A stretch of DNA of 64,000 bases from Blastocatellia bacterium (GCA_021463145.1 JAJTWZ010000010.1:6766-70765), one strand, 5' to 3'; positions 10,001 through 62,004 are shown, numbered from the stretch's first letter. Made by a program: numbers and translations. Notes: generated by a model not told the origin, from the letters alone.

Positions 10001-10007
10001 AGAGCCG

Positions 10008-12985: not shown

Positions 12986-12986
12986 G

Positions 12987-27366: not shown

Positions 27367-27375
27367 GAACCGCTC

Positions 27376-29581: not shown

Positions 29582-30008
29582 ACACGCGTTCTGGGACGCG
29601 AGCGCGGTTGCGCCACTGTGCATTCGGCAGCCTGCATCGGCAGACTCGCGCGTCCTTGCCCGGCGATACGGCATCGTGGCCTGGTGGGGCACACCCGTGG
29701 AGGTCACCAGCGCGGTCGCTAGACTCGCGCGTGAAGGCGTGCTCGATGTGGTGTCGGCTTCGAAGGCACTCGACGTACTTGACGCCCTCGAGCAATCGTG
29801 GCTCGAGGTTGTTCCGAGTGACGAAATCCGGGACGTGTCGCGACAATTGTTAAGGGCCTACTCGCTGCGGGCGGCGGACTCGCTGCAACTTGCGGCGGGA
29901 CTCGTCTGGTCGAACTCGAAGCCGTCCGGACGGGTGTTCATCTGCAGGGACAACCGGCTTGCTGATGCGGCCACGGCAATCGGCTTCGACGTTCGGCGGC
30001 CCAGTTGA
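29550..30008 (+). CDS. vapC: Type II toxin, PIN-domain ribonuclease (VapC family)
   Basis: The protein is about 150 aa with PIN-like acidic positions (FWDASAV...; ...DSLQLAAGL...). It overlaps the antitoxin gene. The start is ambiguous between a TTG at 29544 and a GTG at 29550. Confidence 0.65.
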   Translation: MPSKRIARIAEHAFWDASAVAPLCIRQPASADSRVLARRYGIVAWWGTPVEVTSAVARLAREGVLDVVSASKALDVLDALEQSWLEVVPSDEIRDVSRQLLRAYSLRAADSLQLAAGLVWSNSKPSGRVFICRDNRLADAATAIGFDVRRPS

Positions 30009-30203: not shown

Positions 30204-30713
30204 ATGACTCGAATGTCAGACGATCCACGAACACTCAGTCACGTCGATGCGGATGGACGCATCCGCATGGTCGACGTCGGCGACAAGCCCGTGACTTCGC
30301 GGGTCGCGACCGCGTCCGGGTTCGTGCGCATGAGCGCGGCGACGGTCGACGCGATCCGCGAGCGCCGGACACCGAAGGGCGATCCGCTCGAGACCGCGCG
30401 CCTCGCCGGTATCATGGCCGCGAAGCAGACTGCGACGCTCATTCCGCTCTGTCACTCGCTCGCGCTCTCGTCGGTCGACGTGCGCGCCGAACTAGTCGAC
30501 GACGGCGTCCGCCTCGAGGCGACGGCCCTCGTCGACGGCCGCACCGGCGTCGAGATGGAAGCGCTCACGGCCGTTTCGGTCGCGGCGCTGACGATCTACG
30601 ACATGTGCAAGGCGATCGATCGTGAGATGGTCATCGGCGAGATCCGGCTCGAGCGAAAGTCCGGCGGGCGGTCCGGGGACTACCAGCGCGCGACCGAACC
30701 GTCCGGGACGTGA
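30204..30713 (+). CDS. moaC: Cyclic pyranopterin monophosphate synthase MoaC
   Basis: The sequence matches MoaC across its length ([29 protein letters not shown]...[31 protein letters not shown]...). Confidence 0.9.
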
Positions 30714-31570
30714 GCCGCAGGCCGCCAAAGAACCCGCACCTGAAGACGCTCGAGGCAGCGCTCGCCGAACACTTTGGCTGGCAGCCCGGCGGTGCGATCC
30801 GTGACGCGATCCTCTCGGTCCTCACTCGCAAGGCCGATCGTATCGGCGTCGACGAGGTGAGCTACTGCCGGATGGCGAGCCGCTCGCCCGGCGAGCTCAA
30901 CGCCCTCGCCGAAGAGGTCGCGCCCGGTGGCACGGCGTTCTTCCGCGACGAAGCACAGGCCGAAGCGCTCGCCGAGCGCGTCGTGCCGGGGCTCGTCGCG
31001 GCACGGGCCGCCGAGCATCGGCTGCGGATCTGGTCGGCGGCGGCGTCGACCGGCGAGGAAGCCTATTCGCTCGCGATCCTCGCGCGTGAGGCGCTTCCGC
31101 CCGACAGCGACTTCCGCGTCGAGATCCTCGCCACGGACCTGCAGGGACAGGCCATCGTCGCGGCGAGCCGTGGCCGGTACCGCGCGTCGCAGATCCGCGG
31201 GATGGATGCGACGCTCCGCAACCGCTACTTCATCGGTGTCGACGAGCCCGGACCGGATCGCGCCTTCGACGTCCTGCCGCTCGTCCGGCGGCTCGTCCTC
31301 TTCCGGCGCGTCAATCTCTGCGACGCGAACGCGTGGCGACTCGTCATCGGGTCCTTCGATCTCATTTCGTGTCAGAACGTGCTGGTATACTTCCACCCGC
31401 GCGCTGCGAACGAGCTCCTCGAAAGGCTCAGCTCGGCCCTCGCAGTTGGCGGATACCTCGTGGTGGCGGCTTCGGAGGCGGCGTTGGTGACGAATCGCGA
31501 ACTCGTTGCGGATCCGACGCTCCCGGCCGGTTTCTTCCGGAAGGCCGATCGCGAACCCAAGGACGACTGA
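30710..31570 (+). CDS. CheR-type SAM-dependent protein-glutamate O-methyltransferase family protein (orphan, with no che genes nearby)
   Basis: A CheR N-terminal helical domain is followed by a methyltransferase domain ([52 protein letters not shown]). The start overlaps the moaC stop. Confidence 0.85.
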
Positions 31571-37604: not shown

Positions 37605-40583
37605 TTACTGACCGTCGAAATCTCCGACAGTTGCAACGCCGCCGCCCGCACCGAACGCGTATGCGCGGTCAGCCGGGCCGCTCGTGTTCGAGTTGCGCAG
37701 GAAGATCACTCCCGACGCCACGACATAGATACCGATCGTGTCCGTGCCATCGTCGTTCCAGTCGCCGGCGAGAGGTTGAACCGCGCCTCCGGCACCGAAC
37801 GAGAACGTCAGGTCGGCCACGCCGTTCGTATTCGAATTGCGCAGGAAGAACGCACCCGTCACCGGATCGAACACGCCGATCGTATCGGTGCCGTCTCCAT
37901 TCCAGTCACCCGCGATCGGGACGAGGCCCGCGCCGCCGGCGCCGAACGTGAAGAGGACGTCCGCCGGACCGGACGAATTCGTGTTGCGGAGGAAGAACGC
38001 GCCAGTGGCCGGGTCGTACACGCCTATCGTGTCCACGCCGTCACCGTTCCAGTCGCCGACGAGTGGAACGGCAGTTCCACCCGCGCCAAACGTGAAGACG
38101 ATGTCAGCTGCGCCTGGAGTGTTCGAGTTGCGAAGGAAGAACGCTCCCGTCGTTGCCTCGTACGCTCCAATGTTGCTCGCGCGGTCCGCGCCGACTCCCG
38201 AACCTCCATCCCAATTTCCGGAGAGAGGCCTCATCGTCGCGCTGCCGTACGAGAACTGAAGATCGGCCGCGCCGCCCAACTGCACGTTGCGAAGGAAATG
38301 GCCACCGGAAACCGACACCGCGACCGTGTCGTTCGGCATGGCGACCGGCGCAACGAACGACTCCGTAATGCCGGAGTGATTGTTGCTTCCGCTCACGGGA
38401 CTGACGGCGCCTTCGCCGAGGCCCCGCTTCGCAAAGGCCTGCCACACCAGAGGCACGTCCTCGGGATGCGAGGCGTTCGCCGCCGTGACGATGCCGTCGC
38501 GCGCCTGCCCGAAAGTAGGTGCGTTCGGCGTGTTCTTCAGGCCGTCGGCGGCATACTGCATCGCGCGCGTCCGGCCTTCCTCGACGCCGTAAGTCTTCAT
38601 CAGCGACGCGGCCATTTCCCAGACCATGTTGCACCAGACTTCGCCCGAGTTGTGGACTTCGGATGCCGATCCACCGACGTTCGTATTTCTCGGCACCCCG
38701 CCGGGGAACGTAAGACCAGGACCGATGTCCTTGAAGGTGAGAGGGAAGATGTCCTTCCGAGTCGAGTACGGATACCGGCGGATGCCGTAGTAATAGTTGT
38801 TCGTGTAACCGGACCAGAGGAGGTATGTAGCCCACGCTCCCGTCGTGTACACGCCGTCGAGATTGTCACCCTCGCGGATGATGTTCACGAGGGCATTCCA
38901 GTCGCCCCAGCCCTCACCCATCGATCCTCCCTGACGGTTCGACAGTCCGGAGGCGTTGCCGACGAGGCGGTTCGACATGAAGTGCATCCACTCGTGCGCC
39001 ACGATGCCGAAATCGGTAGACGAGTCGCGATCGGGCTCCGGAGCCGAGAACCTGTACATCTGCATGCGCGGACGTGCACCGTCCGCAGGCGTGCTCATAT
39101 TGGCGTTGTTCGTACCGCCCTGGTCCTCGCCCTCGCCCTTGATGCTGTCGCTCTGGGCCCCGCCACGTCCGTAGTTGTTCGTCTGTGCGTTCAGCGATAC
39201 TTCGTTGAAGCCGCGCTGATACCACACGTCGTGGAGCCAGTTGTTGTAGAAGAACATGTGGACGGCCTTGGACTGGCGAACAGCCGCGTCCTGGCTCGAG
39301 TTCGTGTGCGACCAATCCGGAAAGAACTGTCCTGGCGCCGTCACGGCCCCTCGAATGTCTCCCGGGGAGAAGCCGTCGGAGCCGGTAACGTCGAGATACG
39401 AATCGACGTTGTTTCCAGTCGTCTCGACCGCGCCCGGCGGAAGCCACGGATCGGACGATCCGAGCAGGCTTTCGATCGAGATATCGTTCGTCGTCACTCC
39501 CGCGGCCTGGAAATTGTCCGGCAGGCCAGTCGGGTGCGGAGTGCCCGTGATTCCCTCCGGACTGTCGAACGGGCGGAACGGCGCCGCCGCATCGGCGAAC
39601 AGCCGGTACGTGAACGTGTCGTCCGCGGTCAGGTTCATCCTGAACAGGATCTGACCGTCGACAGCGCTGACGACATAAGAATAGTACGGACCCGCACCTG
39701 CCCCTTCGCCAGTCAGGTTGAGTTCGACGTAGTAGGCCGGAATGGCTTCGCCGGCATCGATCGGGAAAATGACCTGGCGGACGCGAAGGCCTTCTCCATA
39801 CATCGGATTGACCACTATTGCCGAACTGTCAGGGCGGTATCGGAGCATTGTGTAGCCCGAATCGTCCGTGCCGGCCGTCTCGTAGTCGCCCGCGATGAAC
39901 GTGCGCGAGGGAGCGAGGTCCTTCGACGCGCGCGCGACAGCGTCAATAGGCGAAAGCGACAGTGCCTTGCTTCCGGCTCCGGCCGCGACGCTGGGGAAGA
40001 TCGTGCCCGTCGTGCCGACGACAGCGTTCTCGCCAGCGGTCATCACGACCGAGAAATCGCTGCGGAAAACAGGAATTCCACCCACTTTCTGCTGTAGGCG
40101 AACGATCGTGGCCCCGCCCTCCGGCGACGTCACGAATACCTTCTCGAGCGTCGAAAGATCGCGAGCCGTGACGCCGTAGACGTCGGCGTTGGTGGCCAGG
40201 AAGTTCCGTGCGGCCGTCTCCGCGTCACGCGCGCCCCTGCCGGAGAGTCGCTCGCCGGCGGCAACTGTCGTGACCATTAGAGGCAATCCCGAGACCTCGT
40301 CCAGATGGAGCGTGAAGCCCTTGGCTCGTTCGGCCAGGCGATTCGTGGCTGCGGTTCGAGCGGCGCTGACTTCGTGCTTTCCGGCACGCGCGCTGACGAG
40401 CTCCTGTCTGTAATCGAAGTTCTGGGGGAACGAAGCGGCCTGTCTAGCGGTTTCCAGAACCGGATCGCGCTGCTCTGGGGTCGAGGCGAGGGCAATCTGG
40501 CTCAGTGGAGACAGCAGTGAGATCAGGCACGCGCTCGAGACGGCTGTCCGGAACGACCCGGACGCGAATCGGGATTCACGCAT
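37605..40583 (-). CDS. Secreted M36 (fungalysin-family) zinc metallopeptidase with FTP-like propeptide and C-terminal FG-GAP-like repeats
   Basis: The signal peptide is MRESRFASGSFRTAVSSACLISLLSPLSQIALA. The catalytic motif is HEWMHFMSNRL followed by GEGWGDW, which resembles the fungalysin HEYTHGLSNRL and EGWSD motifs. The C-terminus has five repeats of about 50 aa with FG, GG and DWNGDGxDTIG motifs. The start is the ATG at 40583, preceded by AAGGAGA; the track ORF extends to 40688. Confidence 0.85.
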   Translation of the reverse strand: MRESRFASGSFRTAVSSACLISLLSPLSQIALASTPEQRDPVLETARQAASFPQNFDYRQELVSARAGKHEVSAARTAATNRLAERAKGFTLHLDEVSGLPLMVTTVAAGERLSGRGARDAETAARNFLATNADVYGVTARDLSTLEKVFVTSPEGGATIVRLQQKVGGIPVFRSDFSVVMTAGENAVVGTTGTIFPSVAAGAGSKALSLSPIDAVARASKDLAPSRTFIAGDYETAGTDDSGYTMLRYRPDSSAIVVNPMYGEGLRVRQVIFPIDAGEAIPAYYVELNLTGEGAGAGPYYSYVVSAVDGQILFRMNLTADDTFTYRLFADAAAPFRPFDSPEGITGTPHPTGLPDNFQAAGVTTNDISIESLLGSSDPWLPPGAVETTGNNVDSYLDVTGSDGFSPGDIRGAVTAPGQFFPDWSHTNSSQDAAVRQSKAVHMFFYNNWLHDVWYQRGFNEVSLNAQTNNYGRGGAQSDSIKGEGEDQGGTNNANMSTPADGARPRMQMYRFSAPEPDRDSSTDFGIVAHEWMHFMSNRLVGNASGLSNRQGGSMGEGWGDWNALVNIIREGDNLDGVYTTGAWATYLLWSGYTNNYYYGIRRYPYSTRKDIFPLTFKDIGPGLTFPGGVPRNTNVGGSASEVHNSGEVWCNMVWEMAASLMKTYGVEEGRTRAMQYAADGLKNTPNAPTFGQARDGIVTAANASHPEDVPLVWQAFAKRGLGEGAVSPVSGSNNHSGITESFVAPVAMPNDTVAVSVSGGHFLRNVQLGGAADLQFSYGSATMRPLSGNWDGGSGVGADRASNIGAYEATTGAFFLRNSNTPGAADIVFTFGAGGTAVPLVGDWNGDGVDTIGVYDPATGAFFLRNTNSSGPADVLFTFGAGGAGLVPIAGDWNGDGTDTIGVFDPVTGAFFLRNSNTNGVADLTFSFGAGGAVQPLAGDWNDDGTDTIGIYVVASGVIFLRNSNTSGPADRAYAFGAGGGVATVGDFDGQ
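37608..38357 (-). repeat. Five tandem coding repeats of about 150 nt (FG-GAP-like modules) at the 3' end of the M36 protease gene
   Basis: The protein-level repeats are of the form GAFFLRNSNTxGxADxxFxFGAGGxxxPxxGDWNGDGxDTIGVYDP. Coordinates are approximate. Confidence 0.6.
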
Positions 40584-40856
40584 CAATTGAGTTCTCCTTG
40601 AAGACTTGAGTCGGTTCGACGGACTGATCGGACAAAGGATGAAGTCTACCGGCGACTTCGCGGTCGTGTCAAAGGAATGGAAGGCCATGCCGGGGGGTAT
40701 CGATCAGCGACTCGCGGGAGTGCGCGTCAGGCATAGGGTGCACCGATGCGTGTCGCGTCGATCTCGAGCGTTCGAGCGCGGCTTGAACTCGGCCGTGCGG
40801 GACCGTTCGGCCGCCGGCGTCACCCTTCAGCCCGAAACCGCCGACCGGACGGCAGG

Positions 40857-42587
40857 CTAACCGTCCGCGAAACGCTTCAGCACCACCATCGTGATGTCGT
40901 CGCCCTGTGGCATTCCCGCCGCGAATGCGAAAACGTCTTCATACACGCTGTCCAGGAACTCGAGCGCCGGCCGATCCGCCCCGGCCCGAGCCAGCCCGAG
41001 CAGGCGTTCCTCTCCGTACTCCTCGTCATCCGTGTTCGCCGCTTCGGTCACGCCGTCGGTGTACATGACGAGCAAGTCGCCGGCGCCGATCGTCACGCTC
41101 CCGTGCTCGTATGTCGAGCCCGGCATCAGACCCACCGGCAGGCCGCCGGCGTCGAGAGTCTCGGACGCCCCGCCCGCGCGGAGGAGAATCGGCGGATTGT
41201 GCCCCGCGTTCGTGTAGACGAGCGTGTGCTCGGCGGGATCGAGGATCCCGTAAAAGAATGTCGCGTACTTGTTGAAGTCCGTGTTCGCGTAGATGATCTC
41301 GCTGATCCTTCCGGCATTGGCCGCAAGATCCATCTCCGGCCCTGCCAGCGCGCGTAGCGAAGCCTGGACGTTGCTCATCAACAGCGCCGCCGGGACTCCC
41401 TTTCCCGACACGTCGGCAATCGCAATGAGCACTCGTCCGTCTCCGAGCTCGATCGTGTCGTAGTAGTCGCCGCCGACGTGGCGCGTCGGCGTCGAGCGCG
41501 CAGCTAGCTCGTAGCCCGAGATCGACGGCAGCGATTTCGGGAAGAGCAACGACTGGATGTTGCTCGCAATCGCGAGTTCTTCCTCGAGTCGCCGATTCTC
41601 GATCGTCTCTTCGATCAACCATGCATTTTCGAGTGCGACTATCGCCTGGTTCGCAAGTGCAGACGAAAACTCGAATTCGTCGGTCGAGTAAGGCCTCCCG
41701 CCGGCGCGCGGTCCGAGGCCGACGAAGCCGTGCGTAACGTCTTCCTTTCGAATCGGGACGATGCCGGAAATTCCCAGCCGTGCCAGCTCGGGCGGACAGG
41801 ACGCGTCGATCGGGCCCGGACCATCCAGACCGGCGAGCGCGTCCCAGAAGGAATCCTCGTTCCACGCCGGCGAATCGGACGGACTGATGCCGCGCAAGTG
41901 CACGATCGGTCCCGCCGGCCGCCGGAGGACGATCGCAAATTTCGTCAGCAGCAACTGGCCCATCAACGCGTACGCGAACAGCTTCAGTACCTCGGCCGCT
42001 TCGAGCGTGCCGACGAATCGCCGCCCGATCTCGAACAGAGTGTTCAACTCGTGAATCTTCCGGTCCAACCTTGCCGCAAGAGATTGCAGCTCGCCGTAGA
42101 CCCGCGAATTCTCGATCGCCGGCGAGGCGACGTTGGCAATCGACGTGAGGAATTCGAGTTCTTCCGGATGGAACGGCTTTCGTGTGAGTTTGACGCCGAG
42201 CGCAAGTACGCCAAGGCACTGTCCGGCAGCGCGCCGCAGCGGAATCACGACTGCCAGTTTGCGGTCGATGAAAAATCGAAAAGCTTCGTCTTGCGAATCG
42301 CCGATCTCGAGCATCTCGCCGGGCGGGTCGCCGAGCGCGAACTCGGTGCCGACAGGAGTGTCGGGAAGGCCTTTCGCAGCTGCAACGCGGTAGCTACCGT
42401 CCGGTCCCGGAAGGGCGAAGGCTCCACGGCCGATCGCGAAACGGCCCATCGACGCGAGCAGCAGGTGATTGAGGATCGTCTCGAGCTCCAGTGACTGGTT
42501 GAGCGTCTGACTGATCTCGAGCAGGTCCGAGAGCTCGATCAGTCGTCTCTCGTTGTCTCGTCCCTGGCGTTCCGGAGAGCCGCTCAT
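40857..42587 (-). CDS. GAF-domain PP2C-type serine phosphatase (RsbU/RsbP/SpoIIE-like)
   Basis: The N-terminus has tandem GAF-like regions. The C-terminal PP2C domain carries VGGDYYD, AIADVSGKGVPAALLMS, YTDGVTEA and DDITMVVL motifs. Confidence 0.85.
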   Translation of the reverse strand: MSGSPERQGRDNERRLIELSDLLEISQTLNQSLELETILNHLLLASMGRFAIGRGAFALPGPDGSYRVAAAKGLPDTPVGTEFALGDPPGEMLEIGDSQDEAFRFFIDRKLAVVIPLRRAAGQCLGVLALGVKLTRKPFHPEELEFLTSIANVASPAIENSRVYGELQSLAARLDRKIHELNTLFEIGRRFVGTLEAAEVLKLFAYALMGQLLLTKFAIVLRRPAGPIVHLRGISPSDSPAWNEDSFWDALAGLDGPGPIDASCPPELARLGISGIVPIRKEDVTHGFVGLGPRAGGRPYSTDEFEFSSALANQAIVALENAWLIEETIENRRLEEELAIASNIQSLLFPKSLPSISGYELAARSTPTRHVGGDYYDTIELGDGRVLIAIADVSGKGVPAALLMSNVQASLRALAGPEMDLAANAGRISEIIYANTDFNKYATFFYGILDPAEHTLVYTNAGHNPPILLRAGGASETLDAGGLPVGLMPGSTYEHGSVTIGAGDLLVMYTDGVTEAANTDDEEYGEERLLGLARAGADRPALEFLDSVYEDVFAFAAGMPQGDDITMVVLKRFADG

Positions 42588-42588
42588 G

Positions 42589-43014
42589 TCACGCGCTCAG
42601 CCGCTTGATCAGGCGAAGCCTGTTGTGACCGTCCTCGTCGACGTCGACCTCGAGCTCGTCGGTGCCCATTCGCATAAGGCGGATGCCCATACCGCCCTTG
42701 TGACCGACCAGATCCTTGAGCTCGAGTGCCTTGTGCGTATTCGGATCGAACCGGTTTCCGGAGTCGATGACGTCTACCTCGATCTTCGACTTGTCGAACC
42801 AGACGTGAACGGTGAGCTCTCGAGTCGCGTCGCTGTTGTAGGCGTGTTCGATTACGTTTGCGCACGCTTCGTCCACGGCGATCTTGAGCCGTTCCATCTC
42901 ACCGTCGCCGATCGGCGAGCGCCGCGCCGCCATCTCGACGAAATCGCGGATGACCGCGAGATTGACGGTGTCGCTCGGAACGCTGAGTTTGAAGGTCTGC
43001 TGGACGTGCTCCAC
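42589..43014 (-). CDS. Anti-sigma regulatory factor-type Ser/Thr kinase (RsbW/SpoIIAB-like, HATPase_c_2)
   Basis: The 141 aa protein has the N-box (EACANVIEHAY) and G-box (GGMGIRLM) motifs. It lies directly downstream of a STAS-domain gene. Confidence 0.8.
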   Translation of the reverse strand: MEHVQQTFKLSVPSDTVNLAVIRDFVEMAARRSPIGDGEMERLKIAVDEACANVIEHAYNSDATRELTVHVWFDKSKIEVDVIDSGNRFDPNTHKALELKDLVGHKGGMGIRLMRMGTDELEVDVDEDGHNRLRLIKRLSA

Positions 43015-43024
43015 CTCGCCTCCT

Positions 43025-43381
43025 TTACGCCGTGAACTTGCCCGCCGCTTCTTCCTCGGTCGGCGTCAGGTCGTAGAGCTGGTGGAAGCCGAGGAGCTCG
43101 AACACGTGGTAGACCTTCGGGACGAGGTTGGAAATCTTGATGTCGCCGCCGAGATCGCGCACCTGCTCGATGCATCCCATGAAAACGCCGAGCCCGGCGC
43201 TCGAAATGTAGTCAAGGTCCCTGCAGTTGACGATGATCTGGACGCGCCCGCCTTCGATCGCCTTCTGCAACTCGGTCTCGAAGTCGGGAGCCGTGTGCGC
43301 GTCGAGGAAGCCTTGCGGGTAGACGATCGTCAGGTTTCCGTCATCGCGTCGCGAGACCTTGAACCCTTCGTTCTTACTCAT
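43025..43381 (-). CDS. STAS-domain anti-sigma-factor antagonist (RsbV/SpoIIAA-like)
   Basis: The 118 aa protein has a conserved phosphorylatable Ser context (LDYISSAGLGVF). A GGAG ribosome-binding site precedes the start. Confidence 0.85.
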   Translation of the reverse strand: MSKNEGFKVSRRDDGNLTIVYPQGFLDAHTAPDFETELQKAIEGGRVQIIVNCRDLDYISSAGLGVFMGCIEQVRDLGGDIKISNLVPKVYHVFELLGFHQLYDLTPTEEEAAGKFTA

Positions 43382-43452
43382 TGTTTCTCCGGAAATGCCG
43401 TCGATGGACGGCAGCAGTATGCCCGAACTAACGTCGAATACGCCACATGCGG

Positions 43453-45996
43453 CTATCGGAAACGCACCGCGACGAGGGTGATGTCGTCGTGTTGCTGAGC
43501 GCGTCCCGCAAAAGTCCTGACGTCACGGAGCAGCGCGTTGACGACGTCCGCGGCAGTTGCGGACGTGCGGGCAATGTTGCGGGCGAACGCAATGAGACGG
43601 TCGTCCCCGTACTCGTCGCCGCGCACGTCCATCGCTTCGGTGACTCCGTCGGTATAGAGGAGCAACAGGTCGCCCGGCCTGGCCTCGACCGACTCTACGC
43701 GCAGGATGCCGTCGAGTGTGCCGGAGGCGACGGCGCCGAGTGTGACGCCGGGCGCCGAAAGGAAATCGCCATCGCCGTCCGCGCGGATCAGCAGCGGCGG
43801 ATTGTGCCCGGCGCGCGCGTATGCAATCTGGCGCGACTTGCCGTCGACGATGGCGTACGCCATCGTGACGAACGTGCCGCGGGCGAGGTTTCTGCGCAGG
43901 TGATCGTTTACGCGCGAAAGAACGCGAGCCGGATCGGCCGCCTGCCGAGTCTGCGTCACCATGTAGCTCTTCGTGAGCGTCATGTATATCGCGGCCCCGA
44001 CGCCCTTTCCCGACACGTCGCCGACCGCGATGCCCAGCCTTCCGTCCTTCAGGTCGAAATAGTCGAAATAATCGCCGCCGACCTCATTGGCGGGCACGCA
44101 TAGACCGGCAACGTCCAGCCCCGGCGAGTTCGGTGCGGCCGACGGCAGGAGCTGCGCCTGGACGCCACGCGCGACGTCGAACTCCTGTGTGATCCGGAGC
44201 CGGTCTATGGCCCGCCGCACGTGTGACGGCATTGCATCGGCCCCGCCGTCCCGCCTTGGACGCATCGTTCCGTAGATCGCGAGACCAAAAAAACCGAAGG
44301 ACGCCGCGAGCGCCCACGAGCCCATTGCCACGTGCCGGGGATTCATCGTCAGAACCACCGGGTAGGCACTGACGAAGACCATGTAGACGAAAACCGCCGT
44401 CGTCGAGGCGAGCGGCCCGCTGCGAACGAACAGGATCACAAGGCCCACTATGAGCCCGACGTAGACGATGGGAGCAATGCCCGAAGACGCGGGGAAGAAC
44501 TGCGTCAGAGAGAACGCCGCCCGCACCGACAGCATCGCGATCGTGCCAACGACGAGCAGCACCCAGATGCGTCTCGTGCGAAGCCGCGCATACGTCATCG
44601 CAAGAATTCCCGAAACCACCGTCAGCGTAATTCCCGTGACGATGCCGGAAGTGATCGGCGCAACCATCGAGGGCCACGAATTGAACCCGAACAGCGAAGC
44701 GATGGACGGCTGCGACGCGCGCGGCGAGACAAGTCCAAGGAGAGTGACTGCGCCAAGCGCCGCGAACGCCGACAAGTAACCGGCTGTCACCGGCTCGAGT
44801 GCCTCGCGGGTTCGGAAATCGCCGCGCATCCAAGCGGAAAATGGCCGCAGATTCTGTTGGGGCCAGACGAGGTATGCCTGACTCTCTCCGACGGCCCACG
44901 CGCCAGCGACGACGAACGACACCAGGAAGATCCCTATCGGCGACGTGATCGCAATGTTGAGGAAGCCGAGCCAGACTGCGATCGTTCCCGCCGAATTTCC
45001 GAACATTGCCGCAAACGTGCCTAGCATCATGATGATGCTCGCGACGGAGCCGAGGAAGATCCCCGCGAAGAGCAGAGCGGGCGAGCGCAGGTCCAGCTCG
45101 CCTTGCCGGCGCCTCACGACGAGAAGGACTCCGACGATAGTGATACCCGCCAGAATTCCGAGCACCGGAACGAGGTCGAGAGACGTGCCTACCCAGTCGA
45201 AGCTTGACGGCTCCTCCCGCCGCAGCGGGTCTACGAGGTCGAAGTCATACGCGGCCAACCTGTCGCCCCATATGATGGCTCGCGTACGCTCGGTGGATCC
45301 GAAGGGACCTTCGCGGTCCCACGTGAAATAGACTAACCGCACCCTGTCGGACGTAGATCGCGCCAGCGTCGACGTGGGGTTTCCGTCGCACTGGATCGCG
45401 TGGCGGTCAAAGAACGCCCGCGCGATCTCGAGCGCGCGTTGTTGGTCTTGTTCGGACAAGTTTGTCCGATTGTCGCTGTCGACGCCGAACAGATCATTCG
45501 TGTTCAACTCCGGAAAGGGGGGCGTCCGGGTTGCGGTCGGTCTCGAGATCGTCGTCGTGCCCGCGATCGGGGACGACGCTTCCACGTACTGAACTACGCG
45601 GCCTTCCGGAGTAGTCGCAATCGAGAGGATCGGGTCCGGTTGCCTCCGTTGCATCAGGGAAGTTCGAAGCGATCCGGGGTTCGTGAAGATCGCGGTCTCC
45701 CATCCCGGATCCGGCAACGTCCGGCGGTCCGGCGGCGGCGTTCCGGCGGCTTCTGCCAGTCTGCGTACGGTCTCGTAGTCGTCGCCCTCGACGGGAACGG
45801 TCTGGACGACGCGATTCGGGGACGTCCAGCCCTCGGCGGCGGCAAAGTCGAGCGCGACCTCCGAGATGTCGTCGCGCGAGAGCGGCATTGGACGGACGTC
45901 GCGCATGAACGCGAACCTGAAGAGCGCCAGAAATACAATCAGGCCCGCACCACCGGCGATAAAGAGTTTCGGGTGCGCTCTGAAGAAGGTCTTCAT
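43453..45996 (-). CDS. Polytopic-membrane PP2C serine phosphatase (SpoIIE-like: N-terminal extracytoplasmic domain, about 10 transmembrane helices, C-terminal PP2C)
   Basis: The 847 aa protein has an N-terminal transmembrane helix and a domain of about 250 aa before a multi-transmembrane core. The C-terminal PP2C domain carries VGGDYFDYF, AVGDVSGKGVGAAIYMT, YTDGVTEA and DDITLVAV. Confidence 0.8.
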   Translation of the reverse strand: MKTFFRAHPKLFIAGGAGLIVFLALFRFAFMRDVRPMPLSRDDISEVALDFAAAEGWTSPNRVVQTVPVEGDDYETVRRLAEAAGTPPPDRRTLPDPGWETAIFTNPGSLRTSLMQRRQPDPILSIATTPEGRVVQYVEASSPIAGTTTISRPTATRTPPFPELNTNDLFGVDSDNRTNLSEQDQQRALEIARAFFDRHAIQCDGNPTSTLARSTSDRVRLVYFTWDREGPFGSTERTRAIIWGDRLAAYDFDLVDPLRREEPSSFDWVGTSLDLVPVLGILAGITIVGVLLVVRRRQGELDLRSPALLFAGIFLGSVASIIMMLGTFAAMFGNSAGTIAVWLGFLNIAITSPIGIFLVSFVVAGAWAVGESQAYLVWPQQNLRPFSAWMRGDFRTREALEPVTAGYLSAFAALGAVTLLGLVSPRASQPSIASLFGFNSWPSMVAPITSGIVTGITLTVVSGILAMTYARLRTRRIWVLLVVGTIAMLSVRAAFSLTQFFPASSGIAPIVYVGLIVGLVILFVRSGPLASTTAVFVYMVFVSAYPVVLTMNPRHVAMGSWALAASFGFFGLAIYGTMRPRRDGGADAMPSHVRRAIDRLRITQEFDVARGVQAQLLPSAAPNSPGLDVAGLCVPANEVGGDYFDYFDLKDGRLGIAVGDVSGKGVGAAIYMTLTKSYMVTQTRQAADPARVLSRVNDHLRRNLARGTFVTMAYAIVDGKSRQIAYARAGHNPPLLIRADGDGDFLSAPGVTLGAVASGTLDGILRVESVEARPGDLLLLYTDGVTEAMDVRGDEYGDDRLIAFARNIARTSATAADVVNALLRDVRTFAGRAQQHDDITLVAVRFR

Positions 45997-48626
45997 AAGG
46001 AAGCCACGTCCTCCGCGCGCACGACGACGACGGTGATGTCGTCGTGCTGGGCAGCGTCGCGCGAGTGTTCGGCGACGGCTTCGAGAAGACCATCTGCTAC
46101 GGCGCGCGCCGTGCGTCCGTCGTGCAGCCTTACGAGCGAAGCCAGGAGACGATCCTCGCCGAACTGCTCGCCCGTCTTGCTCATGGCTTCCGTCACGCCA
46201 TCCGTGTAGAAGACGAGCGCGTCGCCGCGTCTCAATTCGAGGCGTTCCGAGGTGATCAACTCAGCGAAGCGCGCCTCGTCCGCCGCGCCGAGCGCCGTTC
46301 CCGAAGGTGCCGCGAACGACGCCTCGCCATCCGCGCGAATCACCGCCGGTGGATTGTGACCGGCCCTGGCGTACTGGACCGTCATTGCTTCCGGGTCGAG
46401 AACAGCGTAGGCCATCGTGACGAAGGTCCCGCGCGCGAGGTATTCGCGCAGGTGGCCGTTTGCGGCGGAGAGCACGTCTCCAGGATTCCGTGATGCGTCG
46501 GAGGCAACCTCCATGAAGCCCTTTGTCAGCGTCATGCAGAAGGCGGCCGGCACGCCCTTGCCCGAGACGTCCCCCACCGCAAGTCCGAACCTGCCGTCCT
46601 CGAACGGAAAGTAGTCGTAATAGTCGCCACCGACCTCGTTGGCGGGCAGGCAAGTTCCGGCGATGTCGAATCCCTGCACCGACGGATCACGCGAAGGCAG
46701 CAGTCCGGCCTGGACACGCCGGGCGATATCGAGTTCTTCGTGGCGCCTCGCCTGGTCCATCACGGCGGATACCCTGGGCGGCGGGGCCTCACGGACGTTC
46801 GCCTCCGGGAGCCGGGAACCCGCAATGACCGATGCGATGGCAGGCGCAAGAAATACGGCGATCCCGAAGCCCGCCGCGAGACGGTCGCCCGTCGATGCCG
46901 ACACGATCGCGCCGACCGAATAGAAGAATACCGAAAACGTGAACAGCGCGAACGAGGCCGTCAGGAATCCGCGGCGAACAACCAGCAGAATGCAGATCGC
47001 AGACACGAGCAGCCCCCAGGAGACACTTCCCGGAAGCAGGTCGAACCGAAGATCGGCAAGCTCGAATGCGGCCGCGAACGGCGCGGCGACGGTAGCTGCA
47101 ACCGGAACGGCGATCCACGTGCGCCTGGTAAGGCGATGAAGCCAGGCCGGCAGGAAGAGAAGGAAAACCACTGCGTGGACGAAAACAGCCGGCAGCATGG
47201 TGATCGCGAAAAGGGCCGACGGCCGGGCATCGGCAGCGAAGAACGCGGGGCGTTCAATGACGAACTCCGGACCGAGCCAGGACGCAACTATCGCGCCGGT
47301 ACACGCGAGGACGCCAAGCAGAATCCAGCCCCAGAACGTGCCTTCGATGGCTTCGCGGGCGACCTGTCGCGAGTGGAGCCTGCCGGTCAAGGCGGCGAGT
47401 GCTCCCTCGGTCGAACTCTTTCCCCACGCGAAATAGGCGTCGGCTTCGCCGGCCGTCCACGCCGCGACAAGGATGAACCCGACCGGTAGCCCGACCAGGA
47501 ACTGCAGGGCATAAACGGCAATGCCCGAGTTCGACCAGTGGGAGCCGACGATCGTGGACGCTATCATCGTCGCCACGAATAGAAGTCCAACCAGACACGC
47601 GCGCCAGATGCTGACGAAGTCGCGGGTGATCAGGCGGAAGGCGAATGCTCCGATCAGAATGACGACGAGAAGGACCGAAGCGCCTCCGACTGCAATTCCT
47701 TCTATTACCTGCGAGACGACGCCGCGCGTTCCGATCGTGGCGATACCCTCGGGCCGCGTCCGGCTCTCGAACTCGACGATTCCGACCGAGTTGACGCGGG
47801 CCTCGATGCTTCGCCTGACGTTGGGGAACCGGGCGTCAGTCTGTTCGAAGACGAATTTGTGCTCGGATTTCGCGCTGTTCTCCGCGCCTTCGGATTCCCG
47901 CGGCCCATCGCCTCGCGTGTCGTCTCGCTCGCCGGACTCGCCGCGGCGCCGGCTTCGAATCCCCGCGGAGTCTCCGTGAGCGTCATCGTCGTCATCGTCC
48001 ATCACGACGATCGGAACTTCGTTGTTGCCGAAGTTGATCGCGACGTTCGTGGCGGCTTCGCCACGCTCGGTGAAACCGGTCACGTCCACGCCGGCGTCGC
48101 GGAGTTGCGACTCGACCCTGGCCCTGGCGTCACTTCTTTCGAACTTCTCGCCCTTGCCATCGCGAGTATGAAATGAGGCGCCGACCACGGTTCCGTTTCC
48201 GGCCAGCGTGACCGAGAATCCACCCGGATCCTCGTCCAAATCGCTCGTCATCAACTGGCGGCGGAAATCGACCTGCCACACGGGAATCGCGAGCTCGTCC
48301 GCTCGTGCCGCCTGCCGCAATCGCTCGAGGCCAACGCGCTCGACCAGCGGTTCGAGGTGGACGGATTCGATCCACGCAGGGTGGACGATGGCGCCGGACC
48401 CCGTGACGTCGATGGACTGAGCCGCCGCGTAGTTGCGAGCTCGGACCTCGGCCTCATCGGAACCGATCGAGCCTTTCGGAAGCCAGGCTCCGAGGCCGAA
48501 GCCGTAAAGCGAGATCGCCAAGACGAGACCGACGGTGCCGGCGATGGCAACGAGCGGCGAGATCCCGAGCATGCGATCGGACAACGGTTTGCAAACCCCC
48601 AACACTAAATCAGCCATCGAGGGCAC
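45993..48626 (-). CDS. Paralogous polytopic-membrane PP2C serine phosphatase (same architecture, tandem duplicate)
   Basis: The 877 aa protein has PP2C motifs VGGDYYDYF, AVGDVSGKGVPAAFCMT, YTDGVTEA and DDITVVVV. Its N-terminal domain includes an acidic DDDDDD stretch. It overlaps the downstream paralog by 4 nt. Confidence 0.8.
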   Translation of the reverse strand: MPSMADLVLGVCKPLSDRMLGISPLVAIAGTVGLVLAISLYGFGLGAWLPKGSIGSDEAEVRARNYAAAQSIDVTGSGAIVHPAWIESVHLEPLVERVGLERLRQAARADELAIPVWQVDFRRQLMTSDLDEDPGGFSVTLAGNGTVVGASFHTRDGKGEKFERSDARARVESQLRDAGVDVTGFTERGEAATNVAINFGNNEVPIVVMDDDDDDAHGDSAGIRSRRRGESGERDDTRGDGPRESEGAENSAKSEHKFVFEQTDARFPNVRRSIEARVNSVGIVEFESRTRPEGIATIGTRGVVSQVIEGIAVGGASVLLVVILIGAFAFRLITRDFVSIWRACLVGLLFVATMIASTIVGSHWSNSGIAVYALQFLVGLPVGFILVAAWTAGEADAYFAWGKSSTEGALAALTGRLHSRQVAREAIEGTFWGWILLGVLACTGAIVASWLGPEFVIERPAFFAADARPSALFAITMLPAVFVHAVVFLLFLPAWLHRLTRRTWIAVPVAATVAAPFAAAFELADLRFDLLPGSVSWGLLVSAICILLVVRRGFLTASFALFTFSVFFYSVGAIVSASTGDRLAAGFGIAVFLAPAIASVIAGSRLPEANVREAPPPRVSAVMDQARRHEELDIARRVQAGLLPSRDPSVQGFDIAGTCLPANEVGGDYYDYFPFEDGRFGLAVGDVSGKGVPAAFCMTLTKGFMEVASDASRNPGDVLSAANGHLREYLARGTFVTMAYAVLDPEAMTVQYARAGHNPPAVIRADGEASFAAPSGTALGAADEARFAELITSERLELRRGDALVFYTDGVTEAMSKTGEQFGEDRLLASLVRLHDGRTARAVADGLLEAVAEHSRDAAQHDDITVVVVRAEDVASL

Positions 48627-48671: not shown

Positions 48672-50291
48672 TCAGCGGCGCTTCTTGGACTTCTTCGGCG
48701 CGGATTTCTGCTTCGACTTCGAGGACGGCTTGACCGTCTTCGCCCGATAGGAGGACTTCCGAACCGGCTTGTCCACGTACCGATCCATCGCGGGCTTTGC
48801 CGGAATCCGGATCTCCTGACCAGCCACGAGGTCGGCATTGGACGGGATGCGATTCACGCGAGCAAGCTCGGTAGTCGAGATCCCGTGGCGCGAAGCGACC
48901 GACGAGAGCGTGTCTCCGGCCTTCGTGCGGTAAGCGACAGTCGAATTTCCGCCGCCGAAGCCCGAAACGGAACGTGGACGCGTGGAGTCGGAGTCGCTGG
49001 AGGCCAATTCGTCGTCGGCCAACTCCACCGTGCGGCCGAGGCGCTCGGCAGGCGACAAGGCGGCCCAAGCAGTTTCGAAATCCTTGCGCCTTCCGTTGGG
49101 AACCTTGAGGTAATAAGCACCCGGAGGCGTCATGTCGCGGCGGAGGTGGGGATTGAGGTCACGGATGACATCGGGCGATGTCGAGCAGAGTTCCGCGACG
49201 ACGTCCAGGTCGGTCTGCGTCGTGACCTGCGCAAGGTCGTACTTGAGCTCGGACTCGGGAGTGACGGAGAAGTTGTAGCGCTTCTGGTTGTTCGCAACGA
49301 TTATGACGGCGAGGATGGCCGGCACGTAATTGCGCGTCTCGTTAGGCAGGAAGCCGGCGCGGTGGATTTCCCAGAAATCGGCGTAGCCCGAGCGGGCAAT
49401 GGCCTTCGATACATTCCCTTCGCCGCTGTTGTAGGCGGCCATCGCCAGCAGCCAGTCGTCGCCGAAGTAGTTGTGGAGGAACTTGAGGTATCGGGCCGCC
49501 GCGCGCGTGGACATCTCAGGGTCGGATCGCTCGTCGACCCAGTTGTCCTGGTCGAGACCGAATCGGCGGCCCGTCGAGGGAATGAACTGCCAGATGCCCT
49601 TTGCGGCCGCGTGGCTAAGGGCAGCGGGCTTCCACACGCTTTCGACCTGAGCAAGCCAGATCAGGTCGGTCGGAACGTTCTCTTCCTTGAATATCTTCTC
49701 GGCCATCTTCCGGTAGCGGCCGGAGCGCCGAAGTCCCGACTCCATCGTTCCGCGCCCGCGGCCCGCAGTGAAGTAGGAAATGAACTGGAAGACAGGCGCG
49801 TCAACAGTGAAGTTGAAGTCGTAATCGCCGTCGATAGATGCGAGTTGGCCGTCACCGAGCGACGCAAGGTCGGTGGCCGAGAGGCTGGCGAGTTCGGACT
49901 CGGCAGGGACGTATGCCTGGTCGGCGAATCCGTCCGTCTCGAGGTTCTGCGCCGACAACTGGTGGCGGTGAATCTTCTCGATCAGCTCGCGGTAGTAGCT
50001 CTGGAGCGGCTCGTTACGGCGAATGTCGATGTTGCTGACGAGGATTGCATCGATCGAGTCGTCGAAGGCCCTGCGTGCCCGGTCCAGATCGTTCTGGCGG
50101 AATGCCGTCTCCCCCATCTCGAACAGATACTGGGCACGATCAATTACGGCCTGCGTCTGCGAATCCGCGACACGTGGTGCGCCGGACGGGGAATCGGCCG
50201 AGAAATTCGCCTGGGGTGTCTGGGCCGAAACGGCCCCAGATGAAAGCGCGAGACAGAGCGCCAATGAGAGCGATGCGTTCAGTCGATTCAT
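48672..50291 (-). CDS. mltD: Membrane-bound lytic murein transglycosylase D-like protein (SLT domain and C-terminal LysM)
   Basis: A signal peptide (MNRLNASLSLALCLALSSGAVSAQT) is followed by an SLT domain (ESVWKPAALSHAAAKGIWQFIPSTGRRFGL...LLAMAAYNSGEGNV) and a LysM domain (YRTKAGDTLSSVASRHGISTTELARVNRI). The C-terminal tail is basic. The start is at 50291; the track ORF extends to 50429. Confidence 0.85.
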   Translation of the reverse strand: MNRLNASLSLALCLALSSGAVSAQTPQANFSADSPSGAPRVADSQTQAVIDRAQYLFEMGETAFRQNDLDRARRAFDDSIDAILVSNIDIRRNEPLQSYYRELIEKIHRHQLSAQNLETDGFADQAYVPAESELASLSATDLASLGDGQLASIDGDYDFNFTVDAPVFQFISYFTAGRGRGTMESGLRRSGRYRKMAEKIFKEENVPTDLIWLAQVESVWKPAALSHAAAKGIWQFIPSTGRRFGLDQDNWVDERSDPEMSTRAAARYLKFLHNYFGDDWLLAMAAYNSGEGNVSKAIARSGYADFWEIHRAGFLPNETRNYVPAILAVIIVANNQKRYNFSVTPESELKYDLAQVTTQTDLDVVAELCSTSPDVIRDLNPHLRRDMTPPGAYYLKVPNGRRKDFETAWAALSPAERLGRTVELADDELASSDSDSTRPRSVSGFGGGNSTVAYRTKAGDTLSSVASRHGISTTELARVNRIPSNADLVAGQEIRIPAKPAMDRYVDKPVRKSSYRAKTVKPSSKSKQKSAPKKSKKRR

Positions 50292-50589
50292 ATGACGATG
50301 GATTTGCCTTGAAAATTTGGTCGGGGCGCAGCCGGCCTCGATTCGGTGGTGCCGGCGTAAATACAACTCTCTATTGGAGTTACAACAAAAAGACTCCGAA
50401 TGGTAGCACGTGGCGGAAATCAAAGTCAAACAAGGAGTTCCGGCTGAGGGGGGTGCTGGGCGGGAGGCGGTCGTGGAGCGAAAGCCCGGTTCGAGCGCCG
50501 CAAGTTCGAAAGCATCGCTTGCGCGGAAGGACCGTCACGCACGGCGAGAGCCGCAGTGTTCCATTCATATGAGGACAAGTTCTCTCAGA

Positions 50590-50651
50590 GGGCGAAAGGC
50601 CCACACGGGAATCTGCCAGACTCGCACACGGTCCCCCGGGCCCTTTCGCCC
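50590..50651. other. Stable hairpin in the mltD-rimO divergent intergenic region
   Basis: A 13-bp stem (GGGCGAAAGGCCC, 50590-50602) pairs with GGGCCCTTTCGCCC (50638-50651) around a 35-nt loop that contains two copies of CACACGG. Function is unknown. An AT-richer stretch at about 50360-50400 carries sigma70-like -35 and -10 hexamers oriented toward mltD. Confidence 0.35.
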
Positions 50652-50868
50652 GTCCGGGGCGCTGGCCTCGTTCCCGTCGGTCACACAAGGCGTATGCCAT
50701 AGGCAACGGTGCATTCGCTCCCACGGCGATCTTCGGCCGGTCGAGTTCCAGCGCCGGAACGGAGTCCCTCCGCTCGTCCGGCCCCGGTAACCCAGGTTGG
50801 CGCATTCGCGCATCGTCCCGTATGATTGCCCGCTTGCGCGGGATGCGCGGGGCACGGGAAGTGTCAAC

Positions 50869-52221
50869 ATGAAGAGCATCGGCATGGTCAGCCTCGGCTG
50901 TCCGAAGAACCTCGTCGACAGCGAAGTCATGATGGGCGTGCTGCGCCGTCACGGCTTCCAGCTCACGTCGGACCCCGCGACCGCAAACGTCGTCGTCGTG
51001 AACACCTGCGGCTTCATCGACACGGCGAAGCAGGAATCGATCGACACCATTCTCGAAATGGCCGAGTTGAAAAAGACCGGCTCGCTCGAAAAGCTCGTCG
51101 TCGCGGGCTGCCTCGTCGAGCGCTACCGCAACGACCTGCGGAACGAAATCCCCGAGATCGACGCCGTCCTCGGCACGAGCCAGATCGAGCAGATCGCCGA
51201 AGCCTGCTCCGATCCCGCGTCCTTCGGCCGCCAGGAACAGGCCAATGCCGGCCGCGACGCCATCACATACCTCTACTCCGACCAGACGCCCCGCGTGCTC
51301 GCGACCGCGCCGCACAGCGCCTACATCAAGATCAGCGAAGGCTGCGACCGTCCGTGCACGTTCTGCGTGATTCCGGAAATGCGCGGCCATTTCCGCAGCC
51401 GCTCGCCCGAGTCGATCCTTCGCGAAGTCGAGCAACTCGGCGCCGCCGGCACGCGCGAAGTCGTTCTCATCGCCCAGGAGTCGACGCTGTACGGCTCGGA
51501 CCTCGGACTGCGGCACGGGCTCGCGGACCTGCTCGACAGGATGGCGGCGGCCGGCGCCGTCGACTGGATCCGGTTCCTCTACGCGTATCCGACGACGGCC
51601 TCGGACCGGCTCTTCGAGGTCATGGCGGCACACGACTCGCTCTGCAACTACCTCGACGTGCCGCTCCAGCATGCGTCGCGCGACGTCCTGAAGCGGATGA
51701 AACGTCCGGGCGACCGCGGCTACTACGAGAAGCTCGTCGACCGTGCGCGCTCGATCGTTCCCGACATCGCCATCCGGACGACGTTCATCGTCGGATTTCC
51801 GGGTGAGACGGACGCCGATTTCGACGAGCTCGCCGGGTTCGTACGCACGGCGAAGTTCGACCGCATGGGTGTGTTCACGTATTCCGACGAAGAGGGCACC
51901 GGCGCGTATCTGCTCGACGGCAAGGTCGATCCCGCCGTCGCAACCGAACGCCGCGACATCCTGATGGAAATCCAGCGCGAGATCTCGCTCGAGCGGAACC
52001 GCGAGCACGTCGGCACGGTCGTCGACGTGATGATGGAAGGACGCTCGGAAGAGACCGACCTGCTGCTGCAGGGCCGGATGCGTTCCCAGGCGCCCGAAAT
52101 CGACGGGGTCGTGCTCGTCAACGAACTGCTCGACGACGAGTCGATACCCGAGGAAGGCGACATCGTCCGTGTCGAGATCACCGACGCCCACGAGTACGAC
52201 CTCGTCGGGAGGCTCGTATGA
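50869..52221 (+). CDS. rimO: Ribosomal protein S12 methylthiotransferase RimO
   Basis: The protein has the MTTase N-terminal domain (IGMVSLGCPKNLVDSE), a radical-SAM cysteine motif (CDRPCTFC) and a C-terminal TRAM domain. The start is the ATG at 50869; the track ORF begins at 50797. Confidence 0.88.
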   Translation: MKSIGMVSLGCPKNLVDSEVMMGVLRRHGFQLTSDPATANVVVVNTCGFIDTAKQESIDTILEMAELKKTGSLEKLVVAGCLVERYRNDLRNEIPEIDAVLGTSQIEQIAEACSDPASFGRQEQANAGRDAITYLYSDQTPRVLATAPHSAYIKISEGCDRPCTFCVIPEMRGHFRSRSPESILREVEQLGAAGTREVVLIAQESTLYGSDLGLRHGLADLLDRMAAAGAVDWIRFLYAYPTTASDRLFEVMAAHDSLCNYLDVPLQHASRDVLKRMKRPGDRGYYEKLVDRARSIVPDIAIRTTFIVGFPGETDADFDELAGFVRTAKFDRMGVFTYSDEEGTGAYLLDGKVDPAVATERRDILMEIQREISLERNREHVGTVVDVMMEGRSEETDLLLQGRMRSQAPEIDGVVLVNELLDDESIPEEGDIVRVEITDAHEYDLVGRLV

Positions 52222-52754
52222 CGGTGGACGCCGCGCCGTCCGCACCTTCGGCGCTCGATCGGCTCGCGCGATTCATTGCTTCCGGCGGAGGCGCGGGCTT
52301 TCTGCCGATCGCGCCCGGCACGTGGGGATCGGGAATCGTCACGGGCGGGCTCTGGCTTCTGCACCTGTTCGTTCCGGGCATCGTCGTGCGCCCGATCGCC
52401 GGGCTGATCATGCTCGCCGCCGCACTCGCACTTGCGTGGATCGGCATCTGGGCTGGCGACCGCGTCGCCAACCGGCTCGGCAACGACGATCCGGGCGAAG
52501 TGGTCATCGACGAAGTCGTCGGGCAGTTGCTCACATACAGCCTGTTGCCGTTCGCCGGACGCGAGTGGACCGGCTGGTCGTTCGAGATTGCGCTGGCCGC
52601 CGGGTTTTTTCTGTTTCGCGGGCTCGACATCCTGAAACCGGGCCCGATCGACGACCTTCAGAATCTGCACGGCGGGCTCGGCATCATGGCCGACGACTTT
52701 CTCGCCGGCATCGTCGGCGCGTGCGCAATGCTCGGCGCGGCGATGTTGCTTTGA
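52218..52754 (+). CDS. pgpA: Phosphatidylglycerophosphatase A
   Basis: The 178 aa protein has PgpA motifs GFLPIAPGTWGS and VIDEVVGQ. It overlaps the rimO stop by 4 nt. Confidence 0.85.
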   Translation: MTVDAAPSAPSALDRLARFIASGGGAGFLPIAPGTWGSGIVTGGLWLLHLFVPGIVVRPIAGLIMLAAALALAWIGIWAGDRVANRLGNDDPGEVVIDEVVGQLLTYSLLPFAGREWTGWSFEIALAAGFFLFRGLDILKPGPIDDLQNLHGGLGIMADDFLAGIVGACAMLGAAMLL

Positions 52755-61929: not shown

Positions 61930-62004
61930 GCGGGTGTAACTCAATGGTAGAGTGTCAGCTTCCCAAGCTGAAAGTTGCGAGTTCGAGCCTCGTCACCCGC
62001 TCCA
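61930..62004 (+). tRNA. tRNA-Gly (anticodon CCC)
   Basis: The cloverleaf folds cleanly. The acceptor stem pairs GCGGGTG with CACCCGC. The D-arm is ACTC-AATGGTA-GAGT. The anticodon arm is TCAGC-TTCCCAA-GCTGA. The T-arm is GCGAGTTCGAGCCTCGT, which resembles E. coli tRNA-Gly. The discriminator is T and CCA is encoded. The molecule is 75 nt. Confidence 0.9.

Follow-up and report, generated by a model that had tools for sequence, protein, structure and literature searches.

Partner-switching modules form a major signalling class that is under-charted outside the Firmicutes and Actinobacteria. In canonical modules a linked gene usually encodes the sigma factor. The closest described relatives of the locus reported here are the sigma-B module of Bacillus subtilis (RsbU, RsbP, RsbV, RsbW), the SpoIIE-SpoIIAA-SpoIIAB system, the RsbU-RsbV1/2-RsbW system of Chlamydia, and a group of systems that share the phosphatase/STAS/kinase logic and lack a linked sigma gene (Bordetella BtrU/V/W, Vibrio SypE/SypA, Rhodobacter RbaV/W/Y, Pseudomonas HsbR/HsbA, and Anabaena HenR). 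Outputs through a sigma factor encoded at a distance and through a non-sigma target of STAS or of the kinase are both known from other phyla, and ample literature describes STAS systems that are sigma-less or otherwise non-canonical (PMC8256260). In some of the sigma-less systems of Bordetella, Vibrio, Rhodobacter, Pseudomonas, and Anabaena, STAS acts as the output in its own right (PMC8256260; PMC3999984; PMC6482189; PMC13555669). Among the top-ranked full-text literature results on partner switching in Acidobacteria, the phylum goes unmentioned. Here we describe a putative module of this kind in a soil/wastewater Acidobacterium of the class Blastocatellia, found on a stretch of 64,000 nucleotides (Blastocatellia bacterium, GCA_021463145.1 JAJTWZ010000010.1:6766-70765), which we call the window.

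The locus consists of five open reading frames (ORFs), all on the minus strand, at positions 40857-48626, exactly the coordinates given in a preliminary description of the same DNA. They encode two membrane phosphatases of the PP2C family (mem2 and mem1), a STAS protein, a GHKL serine kinase, and a cytoplasmic PP2C phosphatase with tandem GAF domains; Pfam assignments agree with the gene order and domain architecture of that description. All five have a coding-type third-position GC content (GC3) of 0.77-0.86, in a window whose GC content is 64%. We consider it likely that they make up a phosphorylation-dependent partner-switching module, with one antagonist/kinase pair and three sensor phosphatases encoded in a single operon.

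The antagonist/kinase pair is complete and its motifs are intact, as had been proposed. The STAS protein matches Pfam STAS (PF01740; E-value 3e-18), passes the cut-off of TIGR00377 (74.1 bits versus 53.45), and aligns to the structures of SpoIIAA and RsbV. Its S61 (codon 43199-43201), in the loop ahead of the GLG motif, occupies the alignment position of S58 in SpoIIAA and S56 in RsbV, and both S61 and the segment YISSAGLGVFM are invariant across all the cassettes described below. Ser61 is the predicted phospho-acceptor. The kinase matches Pfam HATPase_c_2 (PF13581; E-value 5e-24), and among solved structures B. subtilis RsbW (6M36) comes closest to it (E-value 1e-11). The N-box (DEACANVIEHA), the G1 motif (DSGNRFD, containing D-x-G) and the G2 motif (GGMGIRLM, containing GG-x-G) are all in place, and these positions are at least 90% conserved over 117 homologs; the kinase motifs, whose loss on careful alignment the preliminary description had named as a way in which its proposal might fail, are present. 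The protein scores under the equivalog cut-offs of NF003144 (59.5 versus 145 bits), TIGR01924 (55.7 versus 155 bits), and TIGR01925 (48.3 versus 135 bits). We class it as RsbW-like, not as an ortholog of RsbW or SpoIIAB.

All three phosphatases end in a SpoIIE/PP2C domain (PF07228; E-value 7e-47 for mem2, 4e-48 for mem1, and 9e-52 for the GAF enzyme). In each of them four Asp-bearing metal motifs (GGDY[YF]D, [GA]DVSGKG, YTDGV, and [HG]DDIT; in mem2 GGDYYD, GDVSGKG, YTDGV, and HDDIT) are intact and align with the metal ligands of SpoIIE. Judged by these motifs, all three should be catalytically competent, each with a different sensor part, in keeping with the preliminary description. The PP2C part of mem2 also matches the structures of SiaA, Rv1364c, RssB, and SpoIIE (5UCG and 5MQH for the last).

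The two membrane enzymes share one layout, judged from hydropathy and from the helices of the AlphaFold2 model (mem2; predicted local distance difference test, pLDDT, 72.7). A first transmembrane (TM) helix is followed by an ectodomain of approximately 250 amino acids (aa), nine further TM helices, a linker helix, and a cytoplasmic PP2C domain, which bears out the topology proposed earlier. With 10 TM helices both termini are predicted to lie inside the cell. Basic residues lie on the predicted cytoplasmic loops, which argues that the PP2C domain faces the cytoplasm. Residues 191-250 of mem2 (window 47877-48056, minus strand) form an acidic, low-complexity, disordered insert with runs of D/E (pLDDT approximately 26). 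This insert varies in length and sequence among orthologs; its poly-Asp run differs by 4 residues even in a relative that is 97% identical.

The resemblance to SpoIIE that had been noted for both membrane proteins holds for the PP2C domain and is lost in the remainder. Against TIGR02865 (SpoIIE) they score 39.4 and 29.1 bits, compared with a cut-off of 490.8, and the match is limited to profile positions of approximately 556-763, i.e., the PP2C domain, to which all their NCBIfam matches are confined. We do not class them as SpoIIE orthologs. The N-terminal 600-620 residues, comprising the sensor and the membrane part, form a very rare module: a word-indexed search found 10 clusters among 5.8 billion, and an exhaustive HMMER search found 21 representatives among 1.84 billion. 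The ectodomain is possibly PepSY-like. In the soluble phosphatase, Pfam detects GAF (E-value 2e-11), GAF_2, and GAF_3, with only the first copy above threshold and the second at an E-value of 0.007. Comparison of residues 15-168 with residues 172-345 by hhalign gives a probability of 98.7% (E-value 3e-16, 144 columns), and on this alignment we regard the tandem GAF arrangement of the 576-aa enzyme, which the preliminary description had reported, as confirmed. A PADLOC search for anti-phage defence systems gave no matches for any of the five proteins.

We argue for one transcript because the junctions between the genes are tight and the ribosome-binding sites are good. The mem2 stop and the mem1 ATG share the sequence ATGA, an overlap of 4 nucleotides that we read directly, as reported earlier. 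A GGAG ribosome-binding site precedes the ATG of the STAS gene; a spacer of 10 nucleotides separates the STAS gene from the kinase gene, whose GTG start is preceded by AGGAGG; and the ATG of the GAF-PP2C gene lies 1 nucleotide past the kinase stop, in the directly read junction TGAcATG. The start of mem2 is probably TTG 48584 or ATG 48572, not GTG 48626, since its orthologs begin MSDRLLGISPL.

Approximately 90 nucleotides upstream of mem2, on the same strand, lies a gene that the preliminary description had omitted. Its product is an MltD-like lytic transglycosylase (Pfam SLT, E-value 2e-27; LysM, E-value 1e-12; NCBIfam MltD, E-value 1e-54 but under the cut-off). The start of this gene is uncertain, as the ORF is open to 50429 and public gene calls give 542 aa; a promoter scan places a promoter-like site beside it at 50429-50400. 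It is a conserved neighbour in four related loci (L007-L009 and L081 in our numbering) and in this clade it is probably co-transcribed with the other five as the operon's first gene. The predicted order of transcription is thus MltD-like gene, mem2, mem1, STAS, kinase, GAF-GAF-PP2C. Upstream, the operon is bounded by a divergent MiaB-like radical-SAM gene (50797-52221, plus strand). Downstream, the promoter scan finds a promoter-like site at 40672-40643, ahead of a gene for an M36 peptidase that has its own ribosome-binding site and an ATG at 40583.

The five genes recur well beyond this genome, a pattern that is absent from the preliminary description. An exact match to the kinase sequence is present in 73 blocks of public assemblies, a near-identical protein is named "ATP-binding protein [Blastocatellia bacterium]" at NCBI, and the closest genome matches are Blastocatellia metagenome-assembled genomes (MAGs), with 71-73% identity across the full membrane protein. 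L007-L009 and L081 have the order of the window from the MltD-like gene through to GAF-PP2C. In L074, where the kinase is 62% identical, the five genes stand in the window order with separate mem2 and mem1 orthologs and other flanks, and L080 holds a partial cassette in that order. In L072, L076, L078, and L083, whose kinases are 43-49% identical, all five genes again form one group, now headed by the GAF-type enzyme, and the three-gene core of STAS, kinase, and GAF-PP2C occurs alone in two contexts. In all, the five genes are kept together in at least eight lineages while the flanks change, and for this reason we describe them as a conserved cassette, built on the three-gene core. We rejected the MltD-like gene as a member of the cassette in the wider family; it is absent from L072, L074, L076, L078, and L083.

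The proteins of the cassette are not equally conserved. At equal distance, identity is 94-95% for STAS and kinase, 85% for the GAF enzyme, and 66-71% for the membrane sensors, which fits a fixed common core with diverging inputs. At the larger distance of L074, no other protein of the cassette is as well conserved as STAS (77% versus 62% for the kinase). Two of the assemblies, L007 and L009 (CAZXLQ010000173.1 and CAZQBW010000065.1), are titled "uncultured Clostridia bacterium". These labels are probably wrong, because both loci are syntenic with the Blastocatellia locus of the window (71-72% identical), as is the Blastocatellia-titled L008. In L008, a long-read Blastocatellia MAG, both membrane phosphatase genes are split into two frames each (8424-13543), by either assembly indels or pseudogene formation.

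A mechanism can be proposed from the known systems. By default, the RsbW-like kinase would phosphorylate STAS on Ser61 and so hold it inactive. Each of the three RsbU/SpoIIE-family phosphatases would remove this phosphate upon the stimulus of its own sensor: differing 250-aa ectodomains and a common nine-helix membrane core would let the two 10-TM proteins respond to cues from the envelope or periplasm, and the tandem GAF domains of the soluble enzyme would detect a ligand in the cytoplasm. In RsbU-type PP2Cs, activation comes about by dimerization through the linker, in which a crossing coiled-coil is ordered by the sensor, and the same has been proposed for GAF-, HAMP-, and receiver-linked relatives (PMC12143880). 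The linker helix before each PP2C domain of the locus is consistent with such activation, the signal probably passing through the helix to give a PP2C dimer that binds metal and is active. Dephosphorylated STAS would then bind the kinase and free the kinase's partner, or would be free to act itself.

Several points weigh against this picture of the module. It is only through gene linkage that the three phosphatases are assigned to this STAS protein. Anti-sigma activity should not be assumed, because the kinase is far under the RsbW and SpoIIAB cut-offs. The sensors are weakly identified: the sensor/TM module has no meaningful Pfam match at E-values up to 10, and its N-terminal model (pLDDT 59) has no Foldseek match below an E-value of 1 in the PDB. 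Finally, the searches for a sigma factor reported next cover only the 64-kb window and loci of up to 20 kb.

The module has no sigma factor in cis, and here our results agree with the preliminary description. A Pfam scan of the 51 predicted genes of the window found no Sigma70 domain in any of them, phmmer searches of every six-frame ORF of the window, with RpoE and SigB as queries, found nothing below an E-value of 0.6, and the flanks of approximately 10 related loci are free of sigma genes out to 10 kb. A sigma gene of the same operon just beyond the window, which had been named as a finding that would overturn the proposal, does not arise, as 15 kb or more separate the operon from either end of the window and it is bounded on both sides. 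The output is presumably encoded elsewhere in the genome, and the partner would be a sigma factor or another protein. One possible reading, which we hold tentatively, is that the kinase is a true anti-sigma factor holding a distant group-3 (SigB/SigF/FliA-like) sigma, to be freed by dephosphorylated STAS. Among NCBIfam families and solved structures, RsbW and SpoIIAB indeed score best with the kinase, and the STAS protein is above the cut-off of the anti-sigma-antagonist superfamily; yet the kinase falls under every equivalog cut-off, and no sigma gene accompanies the cassette in some 10 independent contexts or in the window, whereas canonical systems are usually sigma-linked.

It may be instead that STAS is the effector, that the kinase only switches STAS off, and that dephosphorylated STAS binds a non-sigma target. 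This, too, we would put forward as a tentative possibility. The consistent absence of a sigma gene in cis speaks for it, and the stronger conservation of STAS than of the kinase in L074 fits additional STAS partners, although the differences in conservation are modest at other distances. SypA, HsbA, BtrV, and the Anabaena Hep-layer module provide precedents for STAS as effector, and sigma-less systems of this kind are documented (PMC8256260; PMC13555669). A conserved candidate target beside the cassette, however, is missing, the flanks differing in every lineage.

The number of inputs can also be questioned. In L072 (4759-7296), L076 (4772-7312), and L078 (4758-7316) the first membrane PP2C has lost some catalytic residues: GDVSGKG is replaced by AQGGHDG, AQGSDRG, or AQGSDQG, with the metal-binding Asp changed to Gln, and in L078 YTDGV is in addition replaced by FTKGV, with Asp changed to Lys. 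The second membrane PP2C of the same three loci retains all motifs. One partner degraded and the other intact is a pattern typical of an enzyme/pseudo-enzyme pair, and mem1 and mem2 are always adjacent, often translationally coupled, and kept as a pair through deep divergence. As dimerization activates RsbU-type PP2Cs (PMC12143880), it is tempting to suppose that mem1 and mem2 are halves of one heterodimeric sensor, in which case the module would have two inputs, the membrane pair and the GAF enzyme, and not three. We nevertheless think this somewhat unlikely, for both paralogs keep every catalytic motif in the window and in the closer relatives, and adjacency fits two independent sensors as well. 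A bolder extension, which we regard as speculative and improbable, would make the paired 10-TM phosphatases a new envelope sensor restricted to Acidobacteriota, i.e., an obligate heterodimer with one subunit a pseudo-phosphatase in some lineages, with PepSY-like ectodomains that read cell-wall or periplasmic status, perhaps a link to the co-transcribed MltD-like transglycosylase, and a sigma-independent STAS output.

Two further alternatives fare much worse. PP2C genes are abundant in Acidobacteriota, with dozens of stand-alone PP2C loci that have no STAS or kinase gene nearby, but a chance clustering of phosphatases that act on other substrates and have no functional tie to STAS and kinase is very improbable given the operon-like junctions and the recurrence of the five genes in at least eight lineages despite changing flanks and a changed internal order.

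The other alternative, that of the preliminary description, is that one membrane phosphatase gene was recently duplicated in tandem and its sensor diverged fast. Pairwise alignment of mem1 and mem2 gives 38% identity and is confined to the TM core and the PP2C domain. The TM cores are homologous (hhalign 98%, E-value 3e-13), and the ectodomains are unalignable, with no recognizable homology in a profile-profile comparison (9-16% probability). Separate mem1 and mem2 orthologs are present in L074 and L081, whose kinases are only 62-65% identical, and two large PP2C paralogs are kept even in cassettes with kinases 43-49% identical. On account of the low identity, the non-homologous ectodomains, and the separate orthologs in diverged lineages, we conclude that the duplication is old. 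Its recent origin, which the adjacency of the genes, their 4-nucleotide overlap, and their common architecture might suggest, is refuted by the ortholog pattern, and we give it hardly any credence; the overlap is a sign of translational coupling, not of age.

Table 1. Features of the operon in the window, and segments of the two membrane phosphatases (residue numbers)
Feature	Position	Strand	Remarks
MltD-like lytic transglycosylase	48672..50300	-	SLT and LysM domains, signal-peptide-like N-terminus
mem2, membrane PP2C phosphatase	45993..48584	-	877-aa ORF if counted from 48626
mem2 segments (877-aa numbering)	TM1 ~aa 20-45; ectodomain ~aa 48-298; nine TM aa 303-605; linker helix aa 617-642; PP2C aa 650-871		
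mem1, membrane PP2C phosphatase	43453..45996	-	847 aa
mem1 segments	TM1 aa 7-32; ectodomain ~aa 35-268; nine TM aa 268-575; PP2C aa 651-847		
STAS protein, anti-sigma-factor-antagonist type	43025..43381	-	118 aa, single domain
RsbW/SpoIIAB-like GHKL serine kinase	42589..43014	-	141 aa
Cytoplasmic GAF-GAF-PP2C phosphatase	40857..42587	-	576 aa
Intergenic gap closing the operon	40584..40856	-	273 nucleotides; from promoter scan and sequence

The surroundings of the operon (Table 1) contain several other features. A scan for intrinsic terminators gave 14 sites, no excess over the 10.2 ± 3.8 of shuffled sequence, and none at gene ends. Rfam, at its gathering thresholds, shows no regulatory RNA near the operon; its only hit is a tRNA-Gly (CCC) gene at 61930-62004 (plus strand), so that a hydantoinase/oxoprolinase ORF listed from 61975 must begin downstream. 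A 621-aa ORF at 50380-52245 (minus strand) is a shadow ORF opposite the MiaB-like gene, with an R/A/D/V-rich translation, and is not a gene. The M36 (fungalysin) metallopeptidase downstream of the operon (37605-40583, minus strand) is large and secreted. Its propeptide carries an FTP motif and its C-terminal part a run of "GDWNGDG...FFLRN" repeats; propeptides of M36 enzymes often bear PepSY/FTP domains. We rejected a functional tie between the cassette and this peptidase, whose gene has its own promoter-like site, lies beyond the 273-nucleotide gap, and is absent downstream of the cassette in L008 and L009.

Farther away, a bacterial microcompartment (BMC) set occupies 25159-29122 on the plus strand. 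It codes for a BMC shell protein (25159-25545), for an aldehyde dehydrogenase (25582-27366), and for an EutN/CcmL vertex protein (27376-27711), as well as for a 320-aa protein that has a helix-hairpin-helix (HhH) motif and for an ACT-domain protein. A Phd/YefM-type antitoxin gene (29297-29581, plus strand) overlaps a 154-aa ORF (29544-30008) that has no Pfam match, and the two (29297-30008) may form a toxin-antitoxin pair with an unclassified toxin. A gene for a CheR-type methyltransferase lies within 30710-31570 (plus strand), adjoining moaC, and is the only chemotaxis gene of the window.

The locus leaves the current understanding of partner-switching modules unchallenged. It is a clean, conserved example for asking what such modules control in an abundant and poorly studied soil phylum, and it could help to test whether PP2C sensor phosphatases work as heterodimers.

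Among the known systems, the sigma-B module of B. subtilis is alike in its phospho-Ser STAS protein, its HATPase_c_2 GHKL kinase, the order of antagonist before kinase, and the convergence of more than one SpoIIE/RsbU-family PP2C on one antagonist; RsbW and RsbV, together in 6M36, are the best solved-structure matches. It differs in that the operon of the window has no sigB-like gene and a kinase under the RsbW cut-off. The sensors also differ, being RsbT-binding or PAS domains in B. subtilis, and tandem GAF domains plus two 10-TM ectodomain proteins here. SpoIIE-SpoIIAA-SpoIIAB offers the parallel of a polytopic-membrane PP2C acting on a STAS protein opposed by a GHKL kinase, with metal motifs that align and a fold that matches. 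The homology to SpoIIE, however, is confined to the PP2C domain; the membrane part encoded in the window comes from another family, which is rare and has an ectodomain of 250 aa, whereas SpoIIE is not known to have an ectodomain. The window has no sigF either, and its host belongs to a non-sporulating Gram-negative phylum.

In Chlamydia, a membrane PP2C with a periplasmic sensor likewise feeds a STAS/kinase system with no adjacent SigB gene (PMC8256260; PMC11619594). There, the periplasmic domain and the number of TM helices are different, and one phosphatase serves two antagonists, compared with three phosphatases and one antagonist in the window. The sigma-less systems (BtrU/V/W, SypE/SypA, RbaV/W/Y, HsbR/HsbA, and HenR) differ in having a single phosphatase, to which a receiver or kinase domain is often fused, and none is reported with paired 10-TM sensor phosphatases and a GAF-GAF phosphatase. 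All parts of the locus fall into known families, and each feature has a precedent, be it the sigma-less module, several phosphatases per antagonist (RsbU and RsbP), or membrane sensor PP2Cs (SpoIIE and Chlamydia RsbU). The novelty lies in how these features are combined, in the conservation of that combination in Acidobacteriota, and in a sensor module that is rare.

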